A stretch of DNA of 624 nucleotides, taken from Escherichia coli (GTDB lineage Bacteria; Pseudomonadota; Gammaproteobacteria; Enterobacterales; Enterobacteriaceae). This document shows positions 1-624 of the stretch, in pieces. Positions within the stretch are counted from its first letter, which is position 1, and the number at the start of each line of letters is the position of its first letter. Under the pieces are notes generated by a model. That model saw only the letters and a list, made by a program, of their open reading frames with translations. It was not told the DNA's origin and made no database searches. Both the position numbers and the translations under genes were made by a program. Where the stretch lies: NCBI RefSeq assembly GCF_003334385.1, contig NZ_QOWN01000160.1; one strand, written 5' to 3'.

Positions 1-80
1 ACTACCATCGGCGCTACGGCGTTTCACTTCTGAGTTCGGCATGGGGTCAGGTGGGACCACCGCGCTACTGCCGCCAGGCA
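1..80 (-). rRNA. rrf: 5S ribosomal RNA, 5' portion (nt 1-80 of ~120); truncated by the window's left edge
   Basis: The reverse complement of 1-80 is UGCCUGGCGGCAGUAGCGCGGUGGUCCCACCUGACCCCAUGCCGAACUCAGAAGUGAAACGCCGUAGCGCCGAUGGUAGU, which matches the enterobacterial 5S rRNA 5' two-thirds essentially base for base. The mature 5' end (UGCCUGGCGG) is at window position 80. Confidence 0.95.
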
Positions 81-173
81 AATTCTGTTTTATCAGACCG
101 CTTCTGCGTTCTGATTTAATCTGTATCAGGCTGAAAATCTTCTCTCAATCCGCCAAAACACCTTCGGCGTTGT
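81..173 (-). other. 23S-5S intergenic transcribed spacer (part of the 9S pre-5S precursor region); no tRNA present
   Basis: This is the interval between the 23S 3' end (174) and the 5S 5' end (80). In RNA sense it reads ACAACGCCGAAGGUGUUUUGGCGGAUUGAGAGAAGAUUUUCAGCCUGAUACAGAUUAAAUCAGAACGCAGAAGCGGUCUGAUAAAACAGAAUU, nearly identical to the E. coli rrn distal spacer as I recall it. It is too short for a tRNA and has no cloverleaf-compatible sequence. The boundaries rest on the inferred mature ends of the flanking rRNAs. Confidence 0.85.

Positions 174-624
<451 letters not shown>

Follow-up and report, generated by a model that had tools for sequence, protein, structure and literature searches.

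An Escherichia coli rrn operon fragment cut within the 5S rRNA gene gives odds on its operon copy, not its identity

Transcription of an rrn operon gives a single precursor, from which RNase III frees pre-23S and 9S RNA. The 9S RNA comprises the spacer, 5S and the sequence up to the terminator. RNase E cuts it at two sites, the second of which lies 3' of 5S, and exonucleolytic trimming then yields the mature 5S rRNA. The processing of 9S RNA was reportedly described by Ghora and Apirion in 1978. The 9S RNA in-vitro template begins at GAAGCTGTTTTGGCGGATGAG, which is the rrnB version of positions 164-143 of the window (by which we mean the whole 624-nt stretch of DNA analysed here), and ends in terminator T1 (PMC2948425). 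The distal arrangement of the rrn operons is textbook knowledge (PMC5179076).

We looked at what comes after 5S in the K-12 operons, where ARAGORN and the annotation agreed. Four operons (rrnA, rrnB, rrnE and rrnG) have only terminators after 5S. The rrnC operon carries tRNA-Asp and tRNA-Trp, rrnH carries tRNA-Asp, and rrnD carries tRNA-Thr (thrV) and a second 5S gene, rrfF. The distal tRNA starts about 52 nt past the 5S end when it is tRNA-Asp and about 13 nt past it when it is tRNA-Thr. ARAGORN found no tRNA after 5S in K-12 rrnA or rrnE, and neither of them has a second 5S. Directly 3' of rrfE, folding gave a hairpin of 14 bp with a T run behind it (-22 kcal/mol, z -5.4). This rrnE terminator was found by reading and folding the sequence and was missed by a simple terminator scan. 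After rrfA, folding gave a T1-type hairpin of -32.6 kcal/mol (z -10.6) and a second terminator hairpin of -22.8 kcal/mol (z -6.1). The original prediction had named a terminator, distal tRNA genes or a second 5S gene as the possible continuations of the operon. All three were annotated and detected again in K-12, and they are also described in PMC5179076.

Two further observations were made on these operon ends. The terminator after rrfF in rrnD is of the same T1 type as that of rrnA and rrnB (positions 838-922 of the fetched rrnA region), with a compensatory stem change from G-C to A-T. Just before the second rrnA terminator, at 994-1011 of the fetched MG1655 rrnA region, there is a 13-nt copy of the 5S 3' end (AACTGCCAGGCAT) with CAAAT following it. 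Judged by its letters, this copy looks like what is left of a second 5S gene of the kind that rrnD has.

The window is a piece of an E. coli rrn operon that is read antisense, with the 23S 3' end, a 93-nt spacer and 5S nt 1-80. Its main features are:

624..174, minus strand: 23S rRNA gene, 3'-terminal 451 nt, covering the end of domain V and domain VI (RF02541 match and MG1655 annotation)
81..173, minus strand: 23S-5S intergenic spacer, 93 nt (MG1655 gene limits mapped by exact match)
79..88, minus strand: RNase E 'a' site of 9S RNA, ACAGAAUUUG (letters read directly, role from established knowledge)
1..80, minus strand: 5S rRNA gene, 5' two-thirds, nt 1-80 of 120 (RF00001 and exact gene limits)
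1..20, minus strand: 5S nt 80-61, in sense GCCGUAGCGCCGAUGGUAGU, the last visible piece of 5S before the edge, identical to MG1655 rrfE and rrfA

In the Rfam cmscan, LSU_rRNA_bacteria (RF02541) matched 624..174 on the minus strand with 484.5 bits, covering model positions 2480-2925 of 2925. The match ends at the last position of the LSU model, and we assign this part of the window to 23S rRNA; the right window edge cuts the 23S gene at its 5' side. The 5S_rRNA family (RF00001) matched 78..1 on the minus strand with 56.6 bits against a gathering threshold of 38 (E = 3.4e-11). This match covers model positions 1-80 of 120 and was flagged by cmscan as 3'-truncated by the edge of the stretch. The assignment to 5S rRNA thus comes with a score above the curated gathering threshold although only 80 of the 120 positions are present. 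RAGATH-30 (RF03055) was also reported at 65-121, minus strand, overlapping the spacer and the 5S start. Its score of 20.1 bits is far from the gathering threshold of 59.5 (E 0.24), and we rejected it as a chance match.

Exact string matching to the annotated MG1655 rrfE and rrlE placed 5S nt 1 at window position 80 and nt 80 at window position 1, with 40 of the 120 nt missing. The original prediction was that the window edge cuts 5S at about nt 80 and that the last 40 nt or so lie left of position 1. The 3'-truncated Rfam match and the MG1655 mapping confirm the cut to the base, and by the MG1655 gene limits the missing part is exactly 40 of 120 nt. According to the cmscan structure line, the visible 80 nt comprise one side of helix I (its 5' strand), all of the helix II/III arm including loop C, and the beginning of the third arm. 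The 3' strands that pair with helix I and with the third arm belong to the 40 nt beyond the edge. We found no tRNA within the window with ARAGORN and no promoter-like or terminator-like site within it with consensus scans, so the operon 3' end is truly not visible. Left of position 1 one would expect 5S nt 81-120 (GTGGGGTCTCC[C/T]CATGCGAGAGTAGGGAACTGCCAGGCAT), then CAAAT and then the operon's own 3' end.

The 5S piece could instead be a real partial gene in the genome, truncated for instance where an element has inserted, where the DNA has been rearranged or where a contig ends. We consider the chance of this close to negligible, since every exact-match place that we examined continues into a full-length annotated 5S gene of 120 nt and the cut coincides with neither a structural boundary nor the edge of a repeat; nothing positive speaks for a partial gene. 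Taken with the window edge as the cause of the cut, nothing in the window departs from the well-known E. coli rrn operon, and nothing in it is novel.

The letters ACAGAAUUUG at 88..79 are what we take to be the classical RNase E 'a' site, where a cut between ACAGA and AUUUG would leave three extra nt on the 5' end of p5S. Read this way, the transcribed spacer would form the 5' leader of 9S RNA, the precursor of 5S rRNA.

We next compared the window with annotated E. coli genes. Over all 624 nt it is identical to 23S/5S genes annotated in many E. coli genomes, and an identity of 100% over this length to annotated genes means that the resemblance is not due to chance. An exact copy is present in about 930-1,020 of 5,465 complete-genome records, or about 17-19% (of 60 evenly spaced rows, rows 1-11 were at 100.0% and row 12 was at 99.8%). 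As an E. coli rrn operon we counted a 23S, a spacer of about 92-93 nt and a 5S on one strand, identical or near-identical to annotated E. coli copies. The window has this make-up; all 5,426 genomes gave a match, and the identity was at least 99% in 3,951 records. An exact-pattern scan with window positions 1-200 gave no match in 100,044 GTDB species-representative genomes, one per species. The empty scan is therefore uninformative on other species. It also shows that the E. coli GTDB representative is without the exact variant of window 1-200 or that its rrn copies are unassembled.

To place the window among the operons of one strain, the 3' ends of all seven K-12 MG1655 rrn operons were aligned to it. 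The number of differences from the window was 0 for rrnE, 0 for rrnA, 2 for rrnH, 5 for rrnC, 6 for rrnB, 7 for rrnG and 10 for rrnD. By sequence, the window is therefore of the rrnA or rrnE kind and the five other copies are excluded, an assignment that holds for K-12 MG1655 only. In NC_000913.3 both rrnA and rrnE are on the plus strand, whereas the window shows the operon on the minus strand. This means that the window is reverse-complemented or comes from another assembly or strain.

The positions at which the copies vary are the following:

69, minus strand: 5S nt 12 polymorphism, A in the window and in K-12 rrfA, rrfB, rrfE and rrfF, C in rrfC, rrfD, rrfG and rrfH
spacer position 91, minus strand: A in the window, G in rrnC
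spacer position 148, minus strand: 1-nt indel, with an extra T in the window, rrnA, rrnE and rrnH
spacer position 161, minus strand: G in the window, C or A elsewhere
271..285, minus strand: 23S variable hairpin, GACUCCUUGAGAGUC in the window and in K-12 rrlA, rrlC, rrlE and rrlH, GACCCUUUAAGGGUC in rrlB, rrlD and rrlG
529-531 and 553, minus strand: further discriminating 23S sites (alignment to the seven MG1655 operons)

In the hairpin at 271-285, both bases of one stem pair are replaced (U-A versus C-G), and the loop is also different. As far as the letters go, this would be a tidy compensatory change within one genome. At 529-531, K-12 rrlD has GGGTGATGCTG, whereas the window and the other six copies have GGGTATGGCTG, and this three-base difference is private to rrlD. 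The spacer positions 91, 148 and 161 together with 5S nt 12 define the 3' end of the K-12 rrnA/E type, and in other strains they are shuffled among the operons.

We then asked in which operon contexts the same window occurs across strains. For each operon, a chimeric query joined the whole window, in rRNA sense, to the 40 nt that complete 5S and to 260 nt of that operon's K-12 flank, and the queries were searched against 5,426 complete E. coli genomes. The counts are brackets derived from evenly spaced rows, and since the census requires the exact K-12 flank it undercounts operons with a variable flank. The following was found:

rrnE context: exact and full-length in rows 1-4 of 25, about 680-910 records
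rrnA context: exact and full-length in rows 1-3 of 25, about 460-690 records
rrnC context: exact in rows 1-2 of 60, about 93-185 records, and at least 40 records with the 200-nt version
rrnH context: exact in the top row only (strain 99-3165), 1 to about 90 records
rrnD context: exact in the top row only of 25 rows (strain 300709), 1 to about 230 records
rrnB context: exact in the top row only (strain 300709), 1 to about 230 records
rrnG context: best match 99.9% (strain HS30-1), with the window part exact and a single mismatch in the flank

For the matches that are not of the K-12 type, the flanking genes fix the operon: yhdZ for rrnD, dkgB for rrnH, hdfR for rrnC, kgtP for rrnG and murB for rrnB. 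An exact string search found the whole 624-nt window at each of the five loci that were fetched. The exact window was thus seen in all seven operon contexts and before all three kinds of operon end. We had considered the variants inside the window as operon markers; they hold in K-12 and not generally, as the exact window was found in rrnC, rrnH, rrnD, rrnB and rrnG contexts.

Two observations concern single strains and flanks. In NZ_CP025903.1 (strain 300709) the exact window is present in at least three operons, in rrnA, rrnB and rrnD contexts, and the 3' ends of its operons are far more homogenised than those of K-12. A query made of the window plus yjaA was covered to at least 80% in only 2,574 of the 5,426 genomes, which means that the gene beside rrnE is variable across E. 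coli. This variability agrees with the role of yjaA as a marker of phylogroups.

As for how one variant came to lie in so many contexts, we infer that the rrnA/E variant would have been copied among operons by gene conversion, the accepted mechanism, in which rrn copies recombine homologously with one another. This process has been reviewed for rrn operons (PMC6002687). W3110 rrnE is listed with an Ile/Ala spacer and W3110 rrnD with a Glu spacer (PMC5179076), an assignment opposite to the MG1655 annotation, where rrnE has tRNA-Glu. An inversion between rrnD and rrnE in W3110 may be another route that uncouples operon ends from their interiors. The spacer swap between W3110 and MG1655 presumably reflects this known inversion.

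The original prediction stated that any statement about operon identity needs the flanking sequence. Its core is borne out by the exact window in all seven operon contexts across strains, and the census supports the view that, with neither the flank nor the strain at hand, the operon would not be nameable from the letters of the window. "Any statement" was slightly too strong, however, since within K-12 the window narrows the choice to rrnA and rrnE, and by the census the odds lie with rrnE or rrnA and a terminator. Because the variant has spread among operons in other strains, the window alone gives odds and not an identity. These odds come from RefSeq complete E. coli genomes, which are heavily sampled towards clinical and laboratory strains, and from bracketed counts with an exact K-12 flank.

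On this basis, it is likely that a terminator comes directly after 5S in the source operon. Our best guess is that rrnE and rrnA are the likeliest operons, with rrnB and rrnG being rarer. A tRNA-Asp as the next gene is rather unlikely. In that case the window would come from an operon of the rrnC or rrnH type, in which 5S is followed by a 52-nt spacer, tRNA-Asp (and tRNA-Trp in rrnC) and then the terminator. Such operons do carry the exact window, with the rrnC flank in the 93-185 or so records given above and with the rrnH flank in strain 99-3165, and in at least three records the exact copy that is listed lies in rrnC. However, in K-12 the rrnC copy has 5 and the rrnH copy 2 differences from the window, and exact copies are several-fold commoner in rrnE and rrnA contexts.

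An operon of the rrnD type, with tRNA-Thr (thrV) and the second 5S gene rrfF after 5S, is very unlikely as the source. K-12 rrnD is the copy most different from the window, with its 10 positions, and only the top one of 25 evenly spaced rows was exact (fewer than about 230 records), even though strain 300709 has the exact window with the rrnD flank and yhdZ downstream. There is a still slighter chance of an unusual operon end left of the window, either a hybrid rrn operon made by recombination or inversion or a distal gene set absent from K-12. If present, such an end would put a sequence of the rrnA/E type into an unexpected chromosomal context; nothing in the window points to it. A terminator directly after 5S, as in rrnE and rrnA, is thus the reading that we prefer.

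The K-12 operons show how soon the flank becomes informative. Past the 5S end the sequence continues with ...CAGGCATCAAATTAAGCAGTAAGCCGG in the rrnC/rrnH type and with ...CAGGCATCAAATTTAGCGTGCTGATATGG in the rrnD type. After CAGGCAT there is CAAATAAAACGAAAGGC in rrnA and rrnB, leading into the T1 terminator, CAAATTAGAAAAACCCCGG in rrnE, CAAATTATGCGAAAGGCC in rrnG, CAAATTAAGCAGTAAGCCGG in rrnC and rrnH, with tRNA-Asp next, and CAAATTTAGCGTGCTGATATGG in rrnD, with tRNA-Thr next. Counted from the window edge, the K-12 architecture classes diverge from position 46-48 and are five differences apart by about position 60. Separation takes longer within the classes, about 175 nt for rrnC versus rrnH and about 255 nt for rrnA versus rrnB, save one rrfA-specific base at position 12. 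About 60 more nt would therefore settle the architecture and about 255 nt all K-12 operons, and an extension of 500 nt or more is ample. Since the internal variants are mobile, a unique flanking gene is the only operon identifier that does not depend on the strain. This gene (mobB, murB, hdfR, yhdZ, kgtP, dkgB, or yjaA or whatever replaces it) comes within reach at 500-1,500 nt.

This means that, where neither the strain nor the flank is known, an rRNA fragment like the window is best annotated as 'rrn operon, copy undetermined'. The operon-specific variants of K-12 (5S nt 12, the 1-nt indel in the spacer and the variable hairpin in 23S) are unreliable operon markers across E. coli, because the same 624 nt are found in each of the seven operon positions in some strain. 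The import of this is bookkeeping only.

Compared with the known operons, K-12 rrnE (rrlE-rrfE, then yjaA) and rrnA (rrlA-rrfA, then mobB) are the closest. They share all 624 nt with the window, and their gene order of 23S, 93-nt spacer and 5S is the same. The window does not separate the two, as their first difference is at 5S nt 92 (C in rrfE, T in rrfA), 12 nt past the edge. The rrnC and rrnH operons (distal tRNA-Asp with or without tRNA-Trp) and rrnD (tRNA-Thr, rrfF) have the same architecture as the window up to 5S. In K-12 these three differ from it at 5, 2 and 10 positions, respectively, whereas in strains W5-6, 99-3165 and 300709 the rrnC, rrnH and rrnD copies carry the exact window. 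When compared to the 9S RNA, classically that of rrnB, window positions 173..1 correspond to the 5' part of the same precursor, with the spacer, the ACAGAAUUUG site and the 5S body. The window differs from it in that its spacer is the rrnA/E variant GAAGGTGTTTTGGCGGATTGAG where rrnB has the version quoted at the outset, and in that the 3' RNase E site and the terminator of the 9S RNA lie beyond the window.
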